A stretch of 30,449 nucleotides of DNA from Myxococcota bacterium (GTDB lineage Bacteria > Myxococcota_A > UBA9042 > PHBI01 > JAWLBL01). The stretch is from assembly GCA_041687695.1 (NCBI GenBank), contig JAWLBL010000047.1, forward strand, positions 1-30,449. The letters are read 5' to 3'. A model generated the notes under the pieces. That model was not told where the DNA came from, did no database searches, and saw only the letters and a list, made by a program, of their open reading frames with translations. Positions within the stretch are counted from its first letter, which is position 1. Each line of letters begins with the position of its first letter. The translations under genes were made by a program, and so were the position numbers. This document shows, one piece after another, positions 13,783-23,350 of the stretch.

Positions 13783-14298
13783 TCAGCCGCCCGAGGCGAT
13801 GCGCTTGACCGCCTCGAGCGCCTCGCTGACGTGCTTCCGGGCGAAGAGCTGCGAGTCGAACTTGTGCCGGATGAGCCCCTGCGCATCGACCACGTAGGTC
13901 GAGCGGCCCGGCAGCAGGCCCAGGGTGGACTTGACGCCGAAGGCCTTGCGGACGGCGTTGGCCTTGTCGCTCAGCAGCACGAAGGGCAGGCGGTGCTTGT
14001 CGCGGAAGGCGGCGTGGGCGGTCGCGTCGTCGCCCGACAGGCCGACCACCTCGGCGCCGGCGTCCTTGAAGACCTCGTACTCGTCGCGGAAGCTGCAGGC
14101 CTCGGCGGTGCAGCCCGGGGTGTCGTCCTTGGGGTAGAAGTAGATGACGACCGGGCCCTTGCCCAGCAGCTCGTCCGAGGCGACGACCCGGCCGTCGGCG
14201 TCGGGCAGGGCGAAGCGCGGGATGCGGTCGCCGACCTGCAGCGGGCGGTCGGCGGGCGGGGGCAGCTCGAGGCGCGAGGCGTCGGCGGGGCTGGTCAT
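13783..14298 (-). CDS. bcp: Peroxiredoxin, BCP/PrxQ type
   Basis: YFYPKDDTPGCTAEACSFRD, LPFVLLSD and GRSTYVVD. ATGA overlap with the upstream gene. Confidence 0.93.
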   Translation of the reverse strand: MTSPADASRLELPPPADRPLQVGDRIPRFALPDADGRVVASDELLGKGPVVIYFYPKDDTPGCTAEACSFRDEYEVFKDAGAEVVGLSGDDATAHAAFRDKHRLPFVLLSDKANAVRKAFGVKSTLGLLPGRSTYVVDAQGLIRHKFDSQLFARKHVSEALEAVKRIASGG

Positions 14299-15644
14299 GG
14301 CGGGCCTCCAGAGGCGGGCAGGGTGAGGACGCCGGGCCGCGGGGCAGCGTCGGCGTCGCACAGGCCCCGCAGTATCGCCGCCGCGCGCGGCACGTCCAGC
14401 CGCGAGACGCCGGTCAGCGTGACCTGGGTCACGCCGCGATCGGCCAGCCGGCGGGCCAGCGGGGGCGGGAAGGGCGCGGCCGCGGGCTCGTTCCAGACGC
14501 CGTCCGGGCGGCGGGCGACGTGCAGGCGGGCGGTCGACACGTCCAGGTGGACCAGGCCGTCCGGCGGGTCGGCGGGGGCGGTGGTGAAGGCGCCGTCCCA
14601 GCGGTGGACCTGCATCAGCGCGGCCAGGGCGCTGTCGACTCGCCGGCCGTGGCGGTCCGAAGGGGCGCGCGACCAGGCGGGCAGGGCGGCCCAGGGCGTC
14701 GCGGCGGCGGCGTCGAGCAGGATCGGCAGGGCGGGCAGCGGGGCGCCGCGCTCCCAGGCGTCGGCGGCCTGGGCCAGCAGCGGCGTCAGCGGGCTGGGGG
14801 CGCTGGCGGCGTCCAGCAGCTTGCTCCAGGCGGGCACACGCAGGCCGTCCGGGTACAGGGGCGGCTCGCCGCGGGTCAGCCAGTCCTGCCACTCGGCCAG
14901 GGCCAGGGCGCGGGCGGCGACCGGGCCGGCCAGCGCCTCCCAGGCGGCGAAGGGCCGCGGCGAGGACAGCAGAGCCAGCAGCGGCCCTTCGCCGAAGCGG
15001 TCGGCGAGCTCCTGGCCCAGCAGCAAGAAGGGCGCGGCGGCGGGCAGGGCCTCGTCGGGGACCTGGGGCAGCAGGTGCCGCGGGTCGGCGCGCCAGCCCA
15101 GCAGCGCGGCGGCGGCCTCGACGACCATCCAGGGCGCGGGCGGGCCCTGGGTCGCGCCGGCGGGGCCGTGGCACAGCTCGTGGACCAGGGTCGGCGCCAG
15201 CTGCAGATCGATCAGCGCGTCGGGGTCGGCGCCGGCGGCCAGCGCCTGGGCCAGCCGGGTCTGCTCGGTCAGGCCGGCGCCCAGCATCGGGACCCCCGGC
15301 CCGAAGCAGCTGGGCGCGTACAGGGCGGCCAGGGTGGGCCGGGCGGCCAGCAGCGCGGCGGCGTCGGGCGCGCCCAGGTGGTGCTGGGGCGACAAGCCAT
15401 GGGCGCTCAGGGTCGCCGCCAGCGCGTCCAGGGCGGCGCACAGGCGGGGGGCGCGCGCCGGCGTCAGCGGGCGGTGCAGCAGGGCCGCGGCCGGCCAGGC
15501 GTCCGTCTCGAGCTGTTGGCGGCGCAGCGCGGGCTGCTGGCCCCGGTACCAGGCGTCGAGCCGCGCGTGCAGCGCCTCGTCGCCAGTCAGCCGGCGCGCC
15601 TCGCGCAGGGTCGCCTCGACGAGCGGCGGCGCCTCACCCGGCAA
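14295..15644 (-). CDS. Hypothetical HExxH protein (paralog 2)
   Basis: LVHELCH (15182-15168) with a downstream Glu (VVEAAA). Full-length similarity to 17054-18361. Overlaps the 3' end of the radical SAM gene. Confidence 0.75.
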   Translation of the reverse strand: MPGEAPPLVEATLREARRLTGDEALHARLDAWYRGQQPALRRQQLETDAWPAAALLHRPLTPARAPRLCAALDALAATLSAHGLSPQHHLGAPDAAALLAARPTLAALYAPSCFGPGVPMLGAGLTEQTRLAQALAAGADPDALIDLQLAPTLVHELCHGPAGATQGPPAPWMVVEAAAALLGWRADPRHLLPQVPDEALPAAAPFLLLGQELADRFGEGPLLALLSSPRPFAAWEALAGPVAARALALAEWQDWLTRGEPPLYPDGLRVPAWSKLLDAASAPSPLTPLLAQAADAWERGAPLPALPILLDAAAATPWAALPAWSRAPSDRHGRRVDSALAALMQVHRWDGAFTTAPADPPDGLVHLDVSTARLHVARRPDGVWNEPAAAPFPPPLARRLADRGVTQVTLTGVSRLDVPRAAAILRGLCDADAAPRPGVLTLPASGGPP

Positions 15645-17043
15645 CGGCCGCCTCGGCGGGGGCGGGCAGGGGCGTGGGCGCCGAAAACCGTCGGATCGTG
15701 CGCTGGTTGTGCTGCGCCTTGAAGCGCACGCACTCGGCGATCTTGTCGCGCACGGCGTCCGAGTAGCGGAAGTAGTCCAGGGCCAGCGTCGGGTCGACCT
15801 CGCTCTCGCGCAGGGCCGCCTCGGCGCCCAGTTCGAAGGCGTTGGGCTCGTCGACGATGCGCTGGGCGTCCAGCCACCAGCGGGTGAAGCCGTACTCGGC
15901 GTGGTGGCGGTCGTAGATGGCGGTGCCGGGGAAGGGCACCAGCACGCCGCGGGTGTTGAAGTAGTCGGTGGCCTCGGACAGCTCGATCATTAGATCGAGC
16001 GTCCGCTGCAGCTGCTCGACCCCCTCGCCGGGGAAGCCGAACATGAAGTTGACGATGGTGGTCATGCCCTCGGCCTTGGCGGCGGCGACGGCGGCGCGGA
16101 CGTTGTCGGGGCGCTGGCCCTTCTGGATGTCGCGCAGCACCTGCGGGTCGCCGCTCTCGAGGCCGAAGTTGATGGCGACGCAGCCGGCGCGGCGCATGCG
16201 CTGCAGATCGTGCGGCTTGACCATGTTGCCCGGGGTGATGCAGCTCCAGGTCGCGCCGTCCAGCTCGGGCCGGGCCGCGATGGCGTCGCACAGGGCGTTG
16301 AGGCGCGGGCGCAGCGCGGTGAAGGCGTCGTCCCAGAAGGGGAAGTGCCGGACGCCGTGGCGCTCGGCCAGCGCGGCCATCTCGGCGACGACGTTGTCGG
16401 CCGTGCGCCAGCGGTAGGCGCGCCCGGTGACGTAGTTGGCGCAGAAGGTGCAGCGCGCCGGGCAGCCGCGGCTGGTCATCAGGCCGCCCGGGACCACCGC
16501 CTGGCCGTCCGGCGAGTACCAGGCCATGTCGAAGCAGCCGTAGCTCTCGTAGGGGTAGGCCAGCGCGTTCAGGTCGTCCAGCGCGACGTAGGGCCGGCTG
16601 ATCCCGTCGGCCCAGGTCAGCCCCGGCAGGTCGGGGCGCGCGTTCAGCCCGCGGTCCACGAAGCGGGCCAGCGCCACGATGGCCTGCTCGCCCTCGCCGG
16701 CGACCGCAACGTCGAAGCCGTGCGCGACCGGCTCGCGCGGATCCACCGTCACGTGCGGGCCGCCCGCGACCGTCAGCCGCGCCAGGCCCGCCAGCCGCCG
16801 CGCCAGCGCGTAGCCGCGCGCCGCGTTGTAGGTGAACAGGGTCATCCCGACGAGGTCGGGCGCGAACTCGCGCGCCATGCGCTCGGCGTCGTCGTCGGTG
16901 CCGGTCCAGCGCGTCGCCGCCAGATCCAGGCAGCGCACCTCGTGGCCGTCGCGGAGCAGGCTCGCCGCGATGTACTGCTGCCCCAGATAGGGCGCCCCCA
17001 TGCGCTGCGGGAGCCGGGGCAGGATGAGGAGGACGCGCGCCAT
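15634..17043 (-). CDS. Cobalamin (B12)-binding radical SAM protein
   Basis: N-terminal B12-binding domain (DLVGMT, VAGGPHVT, VAGEGE); SRGCPARCTFC CxxxCxxC motif; FWDDAF, FGLESG and FMFGFPGE. Start MARVLL at 17043. Confidence 0.92.
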   Translation of the reverse strand: MARVLLILPRLPQRMGAPYLGQQYIAASLLRDGHEVRCLDLAATRWTGTDDDAERMAREFAPDLVGMTLFTYNAARGYALARRLAGLARLTVAGGPHVTVDPREPVAHGFDVAVAGEGEQAIVALARFVDRGLNARPDLPGLTWADGISRPYVALDDLNALAYPYESYGCFDMAWYSPDGQAVVPGGLMTSRGCPARCTFCANYVTGRAYRWRTADNVVAEMAALAERHGVRHFPFWDDAFTALRPRLNALCDAIAARPELDGATWSCITPGNMVKPHDLQRMRRAGCVAINFGLESGDPQVLRDIQKGQRPDNVRAAVAAAKAEGMTTIVNFMFGFPGEGVEQLQRTLDLMIELSEATDYFNTRGVLVPFPGTAIYDRHHAEYGFTRWWLDAQRIVDEPNAFELGAEAALRESEVDPTLALDYFRYSDAVRDKIAECVRFKAQHNQRTIRRFSAPTPLPAPAEAAVAG

Positions 17044-17053
17044 GTCCGAGACC

Positions 17054-18361
17054 CTAGACGTGCGCCGCGGCGGCCGCAACTCGCAGCCGGAGCCGCGTGA
17101 CCCCACGCTCGCGCAGCCGCGCCGCCAGCGCCGGCGGCAGCAGGTAGCTGGGGTCGGCGGGCTCGGGCGAGTCCGGCTCGGCCGGGCGCCAGATGCGGCA
17201 GGCGAGCGGGTCGACCGTCACCGGCGTCTCGGGCGCCGCCAGCGTCACCCGGTAGGTGCCGCCCACGCGCCGCGGGCGCAGGGCCATCGAGCGTACGGCG
17301 TCGGCGAACATCGCGTGGTCCATCGCTGCCCGGGCCCCGGCCGGGACCTCGGCCCAGGGCCAGGCCTCCAGCGCCTCGAGCCCCAGCCCCGACACGTCGA
17401 CTCCGCCGCCCGCCAGGAAGAACAGCTTCAGCCACGGGTCCGGCCGCGTGTTGCCCGACAGGAAGTGCGGCTCGCGGTGACGCAGGTACAGCGCGCGCCC
17501 CAGCCGCTCCATCGCCTCGCGCAGCCCGGGCGGCAGCACCTCGTCCCAGCGGTCGGCCCCCGCGTGCGCCCGCACCAGCGCCCGCACCCCGACCACCCGC
17601 GCCAGCGCCTGCCCCACCTGCGCGAACCAGGGCGCCCCGAACAGCGCCCCGTCGTCCCCGGCCTCCGGCCAGCACAGCGCCGGCCACGCGTGCACCCCGA
17701 CCCACCCCGCCACGCACTCGTCCGCGTACGGCGGCAGCAGCGCGTCGCGCCCCCGGTCGAAGTGGCTCAGCTCGTGCACCAGCGCCGCCGCCACCCGCCG
17801 GTCGAACACCGCCCACGGGTCCGCCCCCGCCGCCAGCTCGCCCGCGATGGCCTCCAGATCCCCCGGCCACGTGTACAGCATCGGCATCAGCCCGCCGAAG
17901 TAGGTCCGCTCGAAGAGCTCCCCCAGCGTCACCCGCCGCGCCAGCAGCCCCTCCAGCGTCCCCGCCCCCAGCGCCTCGGGCGCCCTCACCCCGCACTGGG
18001 CGTACAGCGCGTACAGCCGCCCCAGCGCCGCCCGCAGCCGCGGCGTCCGCGCCCAGTCGATCGGCGTGTGGAACAGCCACTCGGCCGTCGGCTCGCTCGT
18101 CGCCAGCTGCTCGACCCGCAGCCGCGGCACCCACTCGCCGTAGGTCCCCTCCAGCACCTCCGCCCGCGCCAGCCCCTCCGGCCCGCCCTCGCCGCGCTCG
18201 CGCTCGAGCGCCCACGCCAGCAGCCCGGCGTACGGCCCCGGCAGCGCCAGCCGCGGCGCCGTCGCCCCCGCCCGCAGCCGCCCCGCCGCCCGCAGCCCGT
18301 CCAGCACGTCGTCGGCCACGCGCCGCAGCCGCGCCTCGACCGCCGTCAGATCCCCAGGCAA
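17054..18361 (-). CDS. Hypothetical HExxH protein (paralog 1); start TTG 18361 or GTG 18319
   Basis: LVHELSH (17776-17762) with a downstream Glu (ADECVA). The coding-like region starts at the end of the upstream gene; the 948-aa track ORF is over-extended. Confidence 0.75.
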   Translation of the reverse strand: MPGDLTAVEARLRRVADDVLDGLRAAGRLRAGATAPRLALPGPYAGLLAWALERERGEGGPEGLARAEVLEGTYGEWVPRLRVEQLATSEPTAEWLFHTPIDWARTPRLRAALGRLYALYAQCGVRAPEALGAGTLEGLLARRVTLGELFERTYFGGLMPMLYTWPGDLEAIAGELAAGADPWAVFDRRVAAALVHELSHFDRGRDALLPPYADECVAGWVGVHAWPALCWPEAGDDGALFGAPWFAQVGQALARVVGVRALVRAHAGADRWDEVLPPGLREAMERLGRALYLRHREPHFLSGNTRPDPWLKLFFLAGGGVDVSGLGLEALEAWPWAEVPAGARAAMDHAMFADAVRSMALRPRRVGGTYRVTLAAPETPVTVDPLACRIWRPAEPDSPEPADPSYLLPPALAARLRERGVTRLRLRVAAAAAHV

Positions 18362-20280
18362 ATCAGCAGCTCTTCGCGCAGCGCCGCCTGCAGCTCGTCC
18401 TCGGTGGTCGGCCCCTCGGCCAGCACCTCGGCCACCGTCGGCCACCCCGCCGTCCGCGCCAGCAGCCGCTGCCGGTGCTCGGTCAACGGCAGCACCCGCG
18501 GCCCGTGCCGCCCCGGCCCCACCAGCGCGTGCATGGCGCTGGTCGCCACCGCCGGCTTGCGCTCGCGCAGCGTCGCCCCGTCCGACGCGAACAGCGCCTC
18601 GAGCCAGTCGATGCGGAACGGGAACCCCAGCCCGCTCAGGTACGGGTTGGGCCGCAGCTGGTACTCGTGCCAGCGCGCGCGCTCGGGCAGCGTGCGCGTC
18701 GACAGGCGGTAGTACCAGGCCAGCGGCAGCAGCTCGCGCGCCCGGTCCGGCCCCCAGCCCTGCGCCGCCACGAAGAACCACGCCGCCGCCGTCTGCTGCT
18801 CGACCGTGATCTCGCCGGCCGCGCCCGCCGCCTCGACCGCTTCGTTGTAGTCGGCCGCCAGGTTGGCCTGCCGCGGCCCCCGCAACACCCGCTCGGCCAC
18901 CGGGTCCAGCGCGTCGATCACCAGCCGCAGCGGCGACCCGGCCGCCCGCACCCGCCGCCGATAGGCCCCCACCCGCGCCGCCAGCATGGCCGCGGGCTCT
19001 CGCGCCGGGTCCAGCGTCGGCCGATACCCCACGGCCAGCACCTCGGCCGCCCCCGGGGCGCCCTCGGTCGCCTCCAGCTCGGCCACCGCCACCGCCAGCG
19101 CCTGCTCCAGCACCGCCTCGGGCTCGTCGGCGCCGTCGCGCAGCCGGTCGATGGCCTCGCCCACCGCCCGCAGCCCGGCCTCGAACCCGGTCGTCGCCTG
19201 CTCGCGCAGCGCCGCCGCGTGGCACAGCCGCCACCCGATGTCCTGCAGCACCCGCACCGCCCGCCGCCCGGCGACCGCCTCGTCGGGCTCGGGCTCGGCC
19301 GTCGGCGTCAGCAGGGCGTCCAGCACCCGCGCGCAGCGCGCCGAGAAGGCCACCGGCCCGGTCGCGTAGTCCTCGCCCGGCGCCATGCAGTGCTCGAGCC
19401 AGCGCTGGAAGCTGGGCGAGGTCAGGCGGCGGTGATGATACAGCGCGTAGTCGCAGGACTCGCCGATGGTCAGGTAGTCGGACGAAGGGATCTCGAGGGT
19501 GTTGGTCTCGAGCCCGTGGCGGTAGCAGTGCAGCTCGTAGCGCAGCACCTCGACGGCGTTCTGGGCCACCTCGAGCAGCCGCGGGTCGGCCAGCCGCTCG
19601 GCGCGCGCCTCGGCGCTGTGGGTGCGGCGCGCCAGGCGCTGGCACTCGGGGCAGTTGGGCACGCCGTCGGTGGTCGCGATGGTGTGCTGCGGGCAGTACT
19701 CGCGCCCCAGCTCGCCCAGCCAGTACCAGTGCAGCGCGGCCACCGCCTCGCCCAGGCGCGCCATGTGCATGACGGCCCACTCGCGCAGCCCGGGCCACCA
19801 GGCGAAGCCGATCATCGCGTGGACCAGGCCGTGGCTCCACCAGCGCGGGGCGGCGGTGACCTCGAAGTCGGCGACCGGGGCGTCCTGGCTGAAGGGCCAC
19901 ATCTTCGGGGCGGCCAGGCGGTCGACGTCCAGGCGGATCGCGAAGTGATCCGGGCGCAGATCGTGGTGGATCCAGCCCGGCGCGGGGGGCAGGAAGGCGC
20001 GCTCCAGGCGGTCGAAGGCGAAGAAGCCGCGCTCGCGGGCCCGCAGGGCGGCCTGGTACTCGAAGGGGGTCTCGACCAGGCCGGGGACGCGCAGGCCGTG
20101 GTGGCGCATCAGCGCGTCCTCGCGCTCGGGGGTGCGGCCGGCGTCGATGGCGCGCGCCGCGTCGATCAGATCCTGGGCGCTCAGCGCGTCGGCCAGCGCG
20201 AAGAGCGAGCGCGGCTCGGCGGGGCGGGCGGCGGTGGGCCCGGAGGCGGTGGGATCGAACGGCGGTGCGGTGATGGTCAT
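18346..20280 (-). CDS. Hypothetical 644-aa protein with an HxxxH...E site and a CxxH...CxxC cluster
   Basis: WSHGLVH...LGEAVA and YCPQH...CPEC; strong GC3 bias; first gene of the operon. Confidence 0.8.
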   Translation of the reverse strand: MTITAPPFDPTASGPTAARPAEPRSLFALADALSAQDLIDAARAIDAGRTPEREDALMRHHGLRVPGLVETPFEYQAALRARERGFFAFDRLERAFLPPAPGWIHHDLRPDHFAIRLDVDRLAAPKMWPFSQDAPVADFEVTAAPRWWSHGLVHAMIGFAWWPGLREWAVMHMARLGEAVAALHWYWLGELGREYCPQHTIATTDGVPNCPECQRLARRTHSAEARAERLADPRLLEVAQNAVEVLRYELHCYRHGLETNTLEIPSSDYLTIGESCDYALYHHRRLTSPSFQRWLEHCMAPGEDYATGPVAFSARCARVLDALLTPTAEPEPDEAVAGRRAVRVLQDIGWRLCHAAALREQATTGFEAGLRAVGEAIDRLRDGADEPEAVLEQALAVAVAELEATEGAPGAAEVLAVGYRPTLDPAREPAAMLAARVGAYRRRVRAAGSPLRLVIDALDPVAERVLRGPRQANLAADYNEAVEAAGAAGEITVEQQTAAAWFFVAAQGWGPDRARELLPLAWYYRLSTRTLPERARWHEYQLRPNPYLSGLGFPFRIDWLEALFASDGATLRERKPAVATSAMHALVGPGRHGPRVLPLTEHRQRLLARTAGWPTVAEVLAEGPTTEDELQAALREELLICLGI

Positions 20281-20408
20281 GGGCGCTGCCTGGATGAGGG
20301 TCGCCGCCGTTGATCGTCGGCGCGCGGCGATGCTACGTTGCTTGCCGCGCCGCGTACAGCCGCACGCCGGGCCCGCGCCGGCCCCGCCGAGAGCCCTTGG
20401 AGGATCCC

Positions 20409-21266
20409 ATGCCTGGCTTCGTCGTCCCCATGCCCCCGCTCGCCGACGTCGTCTTTCTGTCGAAGATGAAGAAGCTGCCGGTCGACTGGAAGCAGCCGCA
20501 GGGTGAGGAGGGCAAGCAGTACCCGGACGCCTTCAAACCCGAGGAGCGGGCGGCCGTCCCCGAGCCGATGTGCTACTTCTTCTGCGCCTCGACCAACAAG
20601 TACCACGTCGAGAACGCCAAGAAGATCGGCAAGATGTTCAAGGACTTCGCCCACGAGGCCCTGAACAAGACCAAGGACGCCGTCGACATGTGGCGCCTCG
20701 AGGCCAAGTTCAAGGACCTCAAGGTGATGAGCGTCTCGGCCATCGGCGCGCCCGGCTGCCTCGACGGCCCCAAGCTCAAGGACAAGTACATCGGCTGGGA
20801 GCCGACCGAGAAGAACATGAAGGCCTACGCCAAGGCCGTCAAAGAGGGCGTCAGCAAGTGCTGGGAGGAGTGGCAGTCCAAGGTGACCGTCCCCGGCCTG
20901 CCCTGGTACCCGGCCTTCGCGGCCTTCCCGTCGGCCTCGGCGCCGCCCATGCCCAACATCCCGATGCCGCTCATCACCTGCCCGTCGCCGATGATGAGCA
21001 AGATGACGCCGATGGCGCTCAAGAGCGCGATGGTCGACGCGCTCGACGGCGGGGTGAAGGACAAGGACTCGGACAAGCAGTACGAGGCGCTGTTCGAGGC
21101 GATCGGCACGGCCATCGCGACGGCGTTTCTGGCCTGGCTGCCGATGCAGATGGTCATGAACGTCATGGGCAAGGGGCCGATCCCGTCGTTCGCGCCGCCC
21201 TACGTCCCGGTCGGGCCGGTGGTCGGCGGCGACAACATCGCGGCGCCCGGACACCTCGCGGCCTGA
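20409..21266 (+). CDS. Hypothetical Pro/Met/Lys-rich protein with three internal helix-Trp-strand repeats
   Basis: GGAGG Shine-Dalgarno before ATG 20409; very strong codon bias; C-terminal GKGPIPSFAPPYVPVGPVVGG. Confidence 0.85.
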   Translation: MPGFVVPMPPLADVVFLSKMKKLPVDWKQPQGEEGKQYPDAFKPEERAAVPEPMCYFFCASTNKYHVENAKKIGKMFKDFAHEALNKTKDAVDMWRLEAKFKDLKVMSVSAIGAPGCLDGPKLKDKYIGWEPTEKNMKAYAKAVKEGVSKCWEEWQSKVTVPGLPWYPAFAAFPSASAPPMPNIPMPLITCPSPMMSKMTPMALKSAMVDALDGGVKDKDSDKQYEALFEAIGTAIATAFLAWLPMQMVMNVMGKGPIPSFAPPYVPVGPVVGGDNIAAPGHLAA

Positions 21267-21363: not shown

Positions 21364-22389
21364 ATGTCCGAGATGTCCGAAGAGCAGATCGAAGCGACCT
21401 TGCGCCGCGCGCAGGGCCTGGTGACCGAGGGGACCAAGCTGCTGCAGTCGCGGCAGCCGAACGAGGCCAAGGCCCGCTTCGAGCAGGCCGCCGGGGCGGT
21501 CAGCGGGCTGCCGGCCGAGCACCCGGGCGTGCTGGTCATCCACGCCGCCGTGCACGACGCCCTGGGCGTCCTCGCGGGCAACGCGCGCGCCCTCGAGCCG
21601 GCGCTGCGCCACCACCAGGGCGCCATCGTGGCCCGCGAGAAGCTGCTCGAGGGCGGCAAGACCGACGTCCTGGTCCCGCTGGGCGTCAGCCACCTCAACC
21701 TCGCCAACCTGCTGGCCTCGGGCCAGAAGCTCGAGGAGGCCGAGCAGCACGCCCGCGCCGCCCTGGCGCGCCTGGACGCCGCCGGTCAGGTCGAGGTCGC
21801 CGGCTTCTTCAAGCTGGGCGCCTGCCAGCTGCTGGCGGTCATCCTGGCCGGCTCCAAGCGCCAGGAGGAGGCGCTGCAGGTCTTCGAGCACGGCATCGCC
21901 CAGGGCCAGCAGATGCTCCAGGGCGGCGGCAACCAGCAGGTCGCCGCGGCCATGGCCCAGCTGCTCATCAACGCCTCCATCCTGCACCACCAGCTGGGCC
22001 GCCACGACTTCGCCGTCGACCGCGGCACGGCCGCCGCCGGTCTGTCCAAGCAGCTGGCCGACGTGACCAAGGCCGTCCCGGCGCTCGAGCAGTACGTCGC
22101 CGCCCAGATGAACCTGGTCACCTTCAACGAGGCCGCCGGCCGCTTCGGCGCCGCCGAGGACGCGCTGTTCCGCGTGCTCGAGCTGCTGCCCAGCCAGCCG
22201 CAGGTCCTCGAGCGCGGCCGCGCCTTGTACACCAAGCTGCTGACCCTGACCGACGAGGCCCTCGAGGCCGGCAACCTGCCCCGCGACGAGGTCGAGGAGT
22301 CGCTCGCCGAGCTCGAGAGGATGGCCGCCGCCGCCCCGGCCCAGCCGGACGCGCAGGCGGGCACCAACGGCGACGAGCCCGCCGAGTAG
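21364..22389 (+). CDS. TPR-like alpha-helical repeat protein
   Basis: Paired amphipathic helices (SHLNLANLLASGQKLEEAEQHARAAL; EEALQVFEHGIA); GGGAG Shine-Dalgarno. Confidence 0.75.
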   Translation: MSEMSEEQIEATLRRAQGLVTEGTKLLQSRQPNEAKARFEQAAGAVSGLPAEHPGVLVIHAAVHDALGVLAGNARALEPALRHHQGAIVAREKLLEGGKTDVLVPLGVSHLNLANLLASGQKLEEAEQHARAALARLDAAGQVEVAGFFKLGACQLLAVILAGSKRQEEALQVFEHGIAQGQQMLQGGGNQQVAAAMAQLLINASILHHQLGRHDFAVDRGTAAAGLSKQLADVTKAVPALEQYVAAQMNLVTFNEAAGRFGAAEDALFRVLELLPSQPQVLERGRALYTKLLTLTDEALEAGNLPRDEVEESLAELERMAAAAPAQPDAQAGTNGDEPAE

Positions 22390-22390
22390 G

Positions 22391-23350
22391 TCAGCTGACG
22401 GGCGGGCAGGGCATGCCCATGTCCGCCCGGACCTTCAGGAAGTCCGGCGTCCAGCGCCCCGCTCGGTCGCGCACGACCAGCGGGGCCTCGATCTGCAGCG
22501 GCGCCCCGTCGGCCCCGGCCGCGACCTCGTCGGCGCGCGCCATGCGGTACACTGACAGCAGCGCCTGCCGCCCCTCGCGCGGCACCACGTCGCGCCGGCT
22601 CAGCACGGTCAGCCCCGCCTCACGGGCGGCCAGCTCGACCCGCCGCGTCTGCCCGGCCGACTCGCAGACCGCGAAGCGCCCGCCCGGCGCCAAGAGGCGC
22701 GCCGCCGCCTCGCAGTAGCCCTCGACGCCGCCGCGGGTCTCGAAGCGGCACGGGCCGCACTGCTCGCGCGCGCTGACCGTCCCGTGCCCCAGCGGGATGT
22801 AGGGCGGCGTCCCGGTCACCAGATCGAACACGGCCCCCTCGGGGGTCATGGCCGGGTCGCGCAGGTCCCCGCCGCGCACCTCGCAGCGGTCGGCGGCCCC
22901 GTTGTAGCGCAGCGAGCGCCGCGCCAGCCCGGCCGACAGGGGCTGCGCCTCGACCCCGACGACGCGCGCCTCCGGCCGCCCCCAGGCGACCATCATCAGC
23001 ACCGAACCGATGCCGCAGCCCAGGTCGGCCGCCCGCGCGACCGGCCGCCCGCGCACGCCGTCCAGCGCGTACCAGGCCGTCACCAGGTCGTCCAGCGAGT
23101 AGCGGTGTCCCTCGAGCCGCTGGAAGATGCGCCAGTCGCCGGTCAGGTGGCACAGGTCCTCGCCGGGGCCGGGCCACAGCTCGGGGTCGCTGTCGAAGTC
23201 CTCGGGGGGCCCGGCGGGGCGCGGCCCCGGGGCCACCCAGCCGGGCGGTCGTCGGGCGGGCCGCACGCGGGCGGCGACGTCCTCGGGGATGCGGGCGGAG
23301 GCGGGAGAGGGCCCTGCGTTCGACGTGTTCATCGTGGTCACCGTGTCCAT
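22391..23350 (-). CDS. SAM-dependent methyltransferase, TrmN6/YfiC-like
   Basis: IFQRLEGHRYSLDD; motif I ADLGCGIG; VGVEAQ; motif IV FDLVTGTPPY; RFE; LLAPGGRF. Start uncertain (23350 or 23332). Confidence 0.8.
   Translation of the reverse strand: MDTVTTMNTSNAGPSPASARIPEDVAARVRPARRPPGWVAPGPRPAGPPEDFDSDPELWPGPGEDLCHLTGDWRIFQRLEGHRYSLDDLVTAWYALDGVRGRPVARAADLGCGIGSVLMMVAWGRPEARVVGVEAQPLSAGLARRSLRYNGAADRCEVRGGDLRDPAMTPEGAVFDLVTGTPPYIPLGHGTVSAREQCGPCRFETRGGVEGYCEAAARLLAPGGRFAVCESAGQTRRVELAAREAGLTVLSRRDVVPREGRQALLSVYRMARADEVAAGADGAPLQIEAPLVVRDRAGRWTPDFLKVRADMGMPCPPVS

Follow-up and report, generated by a model that had tools for sequence, protein, structure and literature searches.

The 30,449-nucleotide contig JAWLBL010000047.1 of a Myxococcota bacterium (assembly GCA_041687695.1), referred to here as the window and equal to the whole of contig C47 in a host genome of 7.97 Mb (G000), carries a run of five minus-strand genes, A to E, and a divergently oriented gene, F. 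Protein C belongs to the superfamily of radical S-adenosylmethionine (SAM) enzymes that depend on cobalamin, and across the phylum its presence is tracked by a tyrosine at residue 265 of F. Furthermore, F, B and C are linked to spike and baseplate genes of extracellular contractile injection systems (eCIS), the host possesses an eCIS, and C is nearly never found without F. Judged on sequence, there is about an even chance that the cassette would be a protein-tailoring pathway for F, a probable spike-associated part of the host eCIS, in which C methylates Tyr265. Genomes are labelled Gnnn and loci Lnnn throughout, and the features of the window that matter here are as follows.

20409-21266, plus strand: F, 285 aa, Pro/Met-rich, divergent from A; likely substrate
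21201-21203, plus strand: codon TAC of F Tyr265, in a Pro-rich C-terminal loop with the motif FAPPYVP; predicted modification site
20281-20408, no strand: A-F divergent intergenic region, 128 bp; presumed shared control region
18346-20280, minus strand: A, 644 aa, ATG start
17054-18361, minus strand: B, 435 aa, TTG start, overlapping A by 16 bp
15634-17043, minus strand: C, 469 aa, ATG start, 10-bp gap to B
14295-15644, minus strand: D, 449 aa, TTG start, overlapping C by 11 bp; diverged paralogue of B with HELCH...E
13783-14298, minus strand: E, 171 aa, ATGA overlap with D; BCP/PrxQ-like peroxiredoxin, Pfam AhpC-TSA

Residue 265 of F and the Distribution of Enzyme C

Distribution was assessed in one sample of 401 genomes of the phylum, with 2-6 candidates scored per genome and an orthologue threshold of E<1e-150 for C; the genomes are metagenome-assembled, and absences hence mean "not found". 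F is present in 86 of the 401, 61 of them without C, and C in 26, of which 25 also carry F, the exception being G099, where the contig ends inside A. Strong matches to A occur in 13 genomes, all with F (13/13), and strong matches to B in nine, seven of them with F. Given that 18 of the 26 C-positive genomes are without B and 14 without both A and B, C appears to be the widest enzyme of the set, to which A, B and D are additions.

A column scan of 44 F sequences from genomes with and without the cassette singled out residue 265, which lies in the loop FAPP-x-VP, and 40 further sequences were then added. Scoring covered 79 F sequences, drawn from 77 of the 86 genomes, nine weak or partial C-negative matches being left out. 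Where the genome has C, 22 of 25 F sequences carry Tyr265, vs 9 of 54 where it does not, and the figures are 24/27 vs 7/52 under a relaxed definition in which G011 and G216, with C-like genes at ~1e-135, count as positive. Among the 40 held-out sequences it occurs in five of seven with C and five of 33 without (Fisher p 0.006, kin not being independent). The residues at this position in C-negative sequences (n=52) include Phe in 25, Val in six, and Leu, Ile and Trp in two each.

For a view of shared ancestry, a tree of F was made from 77 rows, with columns 259-271 and two fragments excluded. Under the relaxed definition the state of C switches 12 times on this tree and that of Tyr 13 times, and over 10 independent pairs Tyr changed together with C in 6.1, in the opposite direction in 0.0 and not at all in 3.9 (median p 0.031, range 0.016-0.125, uncorrected). 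On the same measure none of the other 451 column-residue states tested matches Tyr at 265, the runner-up scoring 3.8, an outcome that is favoured by the use of the competing columns, but not of 259-271, in building the tree. As a control, the spike protein PAAR from the same 36 genomes gave a best column p of 0.0045, against 5e-6 for F265; with no covarying column, PAAR was rejected as the substrate. Tyr265 is also found in 11 of the 13 genomes that have C and no strong match to A, B or the methyltransferase, which points at C, and in 14 of 16 site-covering F sequences from B-linked metagenome loci (5 in the discovery set). Two other candidate trackers of Tyr265 were set aside: the M349 methyltransferase family was not clean, its matches in 44 of 73 genomes spreading over a broad gradient of E-values, and the A-linked methyltransferase family tracked it more weakly than C (13/15 vs 18/64).

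Protein F and its Injection System Context

The start of F lies 128 bp from that of A, and the gene was absent from the first-pass annotation, which considered no precursor evident; the likely substrate is instead this conserved protein on the opposite strand. A homologue of F (53-70% identical) is present at all 11 A loci from GTDB, adjacent to A in eight and one gene away in three, the 11 including the close-kin pairs L007/L009 and L012/L013. F matches no Pfam, NCBIfam or PHROG family, and its own family comprises 767 clusters at 50% identity. The protein is conserved over its full length and contains three helix-Trp-strand pseudo-repeats that are weakly self-similar (hhalign E 1e-4 to 7e-4) as well as two Pro-rich loops. 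Its model is mainly helical, with a predicted local distance difference test (pLDDT) score of 77 overall and of 52-64 in the segment around residue 265 (monomer), and fold searches against the PDB, a wide PDB VIA set and viral structures gave nothing above background, which is not proof of a new fold. Among 33 longer members scanned, F domains are fused to Tox-PAAR-like domains (three), phage lysozyme (one) and CARDB (three), and C-terminal extensions such as lysozyme suit a structural carrier. Gene context and fusions, the two sources of evidence on this point, make F a probable spike-associated eCIS part. Long proteins whose N-termini look like signals (P0111, P0119, P0123, P0132) contain the F core domain too, several of them keeping the Tyr loop, and the domain may be a general surface-binding module.

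The cassette as a whole is very probably tied to eCIS. At L012 and L013 the gene order is sheath, tube, CIS_tube, GPD, VgrG OB-fold, A, methyltransferase, F, C, PAAR, gp25 and baseplate, and among 46 metagenome loci with B, C is found in 23, F in 17, PAAR in 14 and any contractile injection system (CIS) gene in 17; many of these loci are short, and of the 19 that reach at least 8 kb, 13 contain F or a CIS gene. Even without the enzymes, F adjoins PAAR, VgrG or DUF2169 in 11 of 20 regions, and PAAR is present in 33 of the 34 F genomes tested. In the manner of eCIS accessory genes, the cassette genes are co-located or co-occur with tube, sheath, baseplate and spike genes and with no type VI secretion system (T6SS) core, VipB being found in 0/5 and gp19 tubes in 5/5 genomes tested. 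The host carries, by Pfam, Pvc16, two sheaths, tubes, CIS_tube-LysM, gp25, VgrG, PAAR and DUF2169, with baseplate J found by tblastn; the eCIS lies on contig C17, VgrG on C3, and a PAAR-DUF2169-kinase-ATP-grasp run on C24. In the relatives L010 and L014, F and A sit between the DUF2169 and kinase genes, which suggests that the window cassette has left that locus.

The peptide or small-molecule cluster setting that had been supposed for these genes therefore gives way to an eCIS setting. No short conserved precursor peptide or transporter recurs in the mapped loci, where open reading frames of at least 40 aa were surveyed, nor does any scaffold synthase; some cassette loci also hold 2-oxoglutarate (2OG)-Fe(II) oxygenases, a carbamoyltransferase, a PhyH dioxygenase or a PGM1-like ATP-grasp gene. 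A nucleotide-kinase-like gene together with a PGM1-like ATP-grasp peptide ligase gene (L156:10056-12064 on G000:C24; L010:12933-14887) follows PAAR-DUF2169 in the host and F-A-methyltransferase in relatives, and the two may add to the tailoring enzymes of this module. Two eCIS loci have a 1500-1650-aa, low-complexity, Ala/Pro-rich gene placed between those for the tube and the tube initiator (L157:9202-14172; L012:1992-6548).

Enzyme C

C combines a B12-binding domain (PF02310, E 1e-18) with a Radical_SAM domain (PF04055, E 3e-28), and the three cysteines of its CxxxCxxC motif at 194-201 (C194, C198, C201) are invariant in 17/17 sequences. It scores under every NCBIfam cut-off, reaching 120 of 750 bits for ApyD, 114 of 578 for HpnJ, 96 of 481 for BchE and 57 of 650 for HpnR; these curated cut-offs rule out a housekeeping identity (HpnJ, BchE and others) and are reached for none of the named B12 radical SAM equivalogs ApyD, HpnJ, HpnR, BchE, TsrM and QCMT. 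The closest PDB match is AprD4, a small-molecule enzyme. C belongs to an unnamed subfamily and is likely the core enzyme of the cassette, and knowledge of the family suggests that it would transfer a methyl group to an unactivated carbon.

Several further observations concern C and its relatives. A second clade of C (L012:14577-15986 and 11 others) has a conserved AGAR at the very C-terminal end, which the window clade does not have. The host encodes two tandem pairs of B12 radical SAM proteins, 31-34% identical to C (L002:7000-10231 and L003:445-4822, on G000:C1 and C6), with no F nearby, and G016 has 22 matches. Immediately upstream of C, three genera belonging to one family have a gene for a leucyl/phenylalanyl-tRNA-protein transferase (PF03588), and two other genomes have such a gene within a few genes of a B paralogue (L194:6284-7006, assigned by Pfam; L198:2405-3136, L202:7374-8087, L185:7678-8562 and L187:5089-5832, by eye); this may be chance synteny or an N-terminal editing step.

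Metalloproteins A, B and D

Protein A has an N-terminal metal site of the form HGxxH...E (H150, H154, E178) followed by a Cys/His cluster (C196, H199, C210, C213). It lacks the catalytic glutamate of gluzincins, the HExxH Glu position being Gly in A and most close homologues and Glu in 9/9 distant paralogues. No Pfam or NCBIfam family matches A, its profile matches no PDB sequence, and by BLASTP and profile comparison it is unrelated to B. The C-terminal half weakly resembles the peptide-recognition domains HvfC/DUF2063/NGO1945_C; of 14 members tested against PF09836 and PF22106, one, an A paralogue of the same genome, matched PF22106 at E 3e-4, which is under the cut-off. Atlas feature matches of 0.81-0.86 serve as a lead only, and a complex prediction for A and F scored 0.00, which carries no weight either way. 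Ten of 18 A homologues bear a C-terminal class I SAM methyltransferase domain, whose host orthologue is a separate gene at 170059-170874 of contig C14. From these sequence features A is likely a non-hydrolytic, substrate-binding scaffold. The distant A paralogues form a widespread, unnamed Myxococcota family of 550-650 aa with an intact HExxH, the Cys/His cluster and an NGO1945_C-like tail, and occur in varied neighbourhoods without F (L001:10409-12082 on G000:C24; L033, L035-L038, L040-L044).

In B, the metal-site set HExxH-x14-E (H196, E197, H200, E215; HELSH) is invariant in 22/22 homologues, and H299, a candidate for the His third ligand expected of an alpha-ketoglutarate (alpha-KG)-HExxH hydroxylase, is also at least 90% conserved. 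The model (pLDDT 94) places the motif on neighbouring helices, 182-198 and 211-225, so that HExxH is followed by a Glu on the next helix; HExxH with an acidic residue 15 past the second His is the gluzincin pattern. Nevertheless, neither B nor D matches a Pfam or NCBIfam family, the B profile matches no PDB sequence, and a Foldseek search of the PDB with B gave nothing at E<=0.001, the best hit in the wide PDB VIA set (Z 5.1) lying on one long helix. No zincin was among the matches listed by these searches, a result compatible with a zincin or an alpha-KG-HExxH fold and no proof of a new one. The first-pass annotation had proposed that B and D could be alpha-KG-HExxH hydroxylases, whose family profile (IPR026337) is presumably part of NCBIfam. 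Both carry the motif, but the profile matches neither B nor D at E<=1, nor any of 22 B-family members at E<=0.1, and no Pfam or other NCBIfam family is matched by those members, so that this identity gains no support. We therefore describe B and D, from sequence and model, as having an apparent gluzincin-type ligand set in a fold without a clear match, with D as a seemingly rare accessory; D-like genes adjoining B were seen in L061 and L183.

An O-methyltransferase accompanies B, joined to it as a fusion in three of 22 homologues and carried by 19 of the 46 metagenome B loci; its best PDB match is the tyrosine O-methyltransferase MfnG (7ux6, E 2e-20). In many soil loci, a 110-130-aa gene that resembles a stand-alone VgrG/gp5 beta-helical needle segment (L064:4162-4545 and similar) lies directly upstream of the O-methyltransferase-B fusion.

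The Gene Run of the Window

The five co-directional genes, with their lengths and overlapping or nearly abutting junctions, are confirmed in the sequence, and the share of G and C at third codon positions (GC3) in A-E is 0.96-1.0 in most 300-base blocks, matching the frames. A sigma-70-like site was not found in the A-F intergenic region, where the promoter and terminator scan was uninformative. The relationship of the two HExxH proteins B and D as paralogues also held (33% identity over 301 aa, E 1e-12), and the idea of a dedicated multi-enzyme tailoring system outside named clusters gained support from the frequent fusion of A and B to methyltransferases and the co-location of B with C in half of the metagenome B loci (23/46). 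On the other hand, conservation of the neighbourhood did not extend to the five genes as a unit, since D stands beside B only in the window, L061 and L183 and most C-positive genomes have no strong B. Nor did the suggestion that the BCP-like peroxiredoxin protects the chemistry survive comparison, as no peroxiredoxin occurs at any of 57 homologous loci (0/46 B loci, 0/11 A loci); E is probably a passenger, though coupled to D in the window. Downstream of F, a TPR/DUF6483 gene (21364-22389, plus strand) and a class I methyltransferase gene converging on it (22391-23350, minus strand) were not noticed in the related loci mapped.

Proposed Pathway and Alternatives

The covariation leaves the prospects that Tyr265 of F is the modified site evenly balanced; were it the site, the chemistry of C would, by analogy with its family, quite probably be methylation. 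C would use a 5'-deoxyadenosyl radical to abstract a hydrogen and would then pass the methyl group of methylcobalamin to a Tyr265 carbon, much as ApyD acts on a peptide Tyr. A may present the F loop via its HvfC-like half, binding rather than cutting, given its metal site without the catalytic Glu. The SAM methyltransferases with which A and B are associated, by fusion or by linkage, could add a second methyl group, most plausibly on the phenol oxygen, and B and D could trim or further oxidise the same segment of F, so that A, B, D and the SAM methyltransferases would be lineage-specific helpers of C. The modified Tyr might be a tuned hydrophobic residue of the tip, affecting target binding, penetration or protease resistance, an idea that comes from the plain hydrophobic residues found at 265 where C has been lost. 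The full form of the proposal, in which the Myxococcota eCIS spike bears a hypermodified Tyr, with F, a new three-repeat family of spike proteins, C-methylated by a dedicated C before two new metalloprotein families O-methylate, oxidise or trim it, is offered tentatively, its chances being somewhat short of even.

A number of points weigh against the proposal. Phe265 occurs despite C in G174, G374, G395, L061 and L064, of which G395 and L061 have rich cassettes; conversely, a full rescan found Tyr265 without a C orthologue in G016, G154, G184, G189, G191, G331 and G349, three of which (G016, G191, G349) carry the A-linked methyltransferase family strongly. The site was chosen by a column scan, the pair test is uncorrected at p ~0.03, and Tyr and Phe codons are one base apart. 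C is unlinked from F in many genomes, and the placement of F at the spike draws solely on gene context and fusions. As to chemistry, the similarities found in PDB and NCBIfam are at family level only, the substrate of MfnG is free tyrosine, and PF00891 enzymes act mostly on small molecules.

Some of these points would be accommodated if the cassette served the eCIS and modified a different component or a cargo (VgrG, the product of the small spike-like beta-helical gene, DUF2169 or the tube), or several, Tyr265 being a docking or recognition residue. C lies near a tube gene in G074 and G139 (loci L201 and L202) and beside gp25 or baseplate genes in L073 and L086 with no F in view, and the five cases of C with Phe265 fit as well; F is, however, the most constant neighbour (11/11 A loci), and PAAR, the sole other part compared, has no covarying column, which leaves this explanation unlikely. 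[quoted passage not shown] Such a role is distinctly improbable, considering that F is conserved end to end, that 61 of 86 F genomes have no C, with F beside PAAR, VgrG or DUF2169, that 18 of 26 C-positive genomes have no B to excise a peptide, and that C-terminal extensions of F domains (lysozyme) suit a structural carrier.

It is likewise rather improbable that the product of the enzymes is a small molecule, for example tyrosine in a methylated form, that the eCIS delivers or that is co-regulated with it, leaving F as a mere neighbour. The MfnG-like O-methyltransferase, AprD4 as the best PDB match of C, and the carbamoyltransferase, 2OG-Fe(II) oxygenases, PhyH dioxygenase and ATP-grasp gene of some loci would all agree with this, but the tracking of C by one residue of F would be left unexplained, no scaffold synthase or transporter recurs in the mapped loci, and the enzyme set varies while F is constant. 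Finally, the linkage might be historical hitch-hiking, with Tyr265 following shared ancestry or base drift. The scatter of the genes in many genomes and the modest pair test (p 0.016-0.125) lend this some room; the linkage to differing eCIS genes in differing orders, and the absence of any opposite pair despite repeated changes on the F tree (12 for C, 13 for Tyr), make it very improbable indeed.

Relation to Known Systems and Meaning

Editing of a ribosomal product by B12 radical SAM enzymes is known, and what is new here is that C falls in no named family, that A, B/D and F are unnamed families, and that the target proposed for the chemistry belongs to a contractile injection machine. The closest precedent is ApyD, described as a cobalamin radical SAM enzyme that forms beta-methyl-Tyr on a ribosomal peptide (aminopyruvatide), its gene cluster also encoding an RRE partner and a SAM methyltransferase (PMC10635010). 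ApyD (NF050148) gives C its top NCBIfam score and shares with the proposed role of C a ribosomally made Tyr as the target; C nevertheless stays far under the cut-off (120 vs 750 bits), its loci have no short precursor, P450 or multinuclear non-heme iron-dependent oxidative enzyme (MNIO), C is proposed to act on a folded protein of an eCIS, and no ApyD-type RRE region is matched, since the match ends at residue 384 of 469. Mmp10 and QCMT (MgmA) are reported as B12 radical SAM enzymes that C-methylate methyl-coenzyme M reductase (PMC8828468, PMC13469106), and resemble the proposed C in being dedicated to one residue of one large-machine protein. They differ in that the target is Arg or Gln in the active site of an archaeal enzyme, without an injection system, and C scores 73 vs 360 on TIGR04014. 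Among solved structures, MfnG, described as acting on free Tyr for a nonribosomal peptide synthetase (PMC10792529), best matches the O-methyltransferase that relatives encode next to B or fused with it; this similarity is at family level, and the window does not encode that enzyme.

F resembles PAAR and Tox-PAAR-like tips and DUF2169 adaptors of T6SS and eCIS in that it shares their loci, contains three pseudo-repeats and is found in fusions with a PAAR-like or a lysozyme domain; unlike them it falls in no Pfam, NCBIfam or PHROG family, and its mainly helical model matches no fold. The alpha-KG-HExxH peptide hydroxylases ChlH, BpmH and PflC, as presented in PMC12636437, likewise have HExxH beside a radical SAM gene, as do B and D, which differ from these and from gluzincins in having no family-model or structure match and from the former in a conserved acidic residue that follows the second His at a distance of 15, as in the gluzincin pattern. 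The main text of a PAAR survey (PMC8651086) contains neither "radical" nor "methyltransferase", and a literature search whose reach ended short of most subscription papers and eCIS catalogue supplements found nothing on radical SAM enzymes, methylation, tailoring or modification of injection systems. Tailoring of an eCIS part would likely be an undescribed kind of chemical modification of a bacterial weapon.

Such a modification would bear on an active system, as eCIS genes are reported to be highly expressed in uncultured marine Myxococcota, where a role in predation has been proposed (PMC11937823). For the enzyme family, an orphan B12 radical SAM subfamily gains a candidate substrate and residue that are directly testable, and covariation of a residue with an enzyme offers a route to the substrates of scattered tailoring enzymes; B and F, in turn, are confidently and moderately modelled proteins, respectively, without a fold match. 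eCIS particles are studied and engineered for protein delivery, and their specificity has been ascribed to tail fibres and cargo. If the proposal is true, enzymatic editing of a spike-associated protein would be a new layer of eCIS specificity, in which RiPP-style chemistry on a phage-tail-like nanomachine, varied from lineage to lineage, would tune what the weapon binds or pierces.

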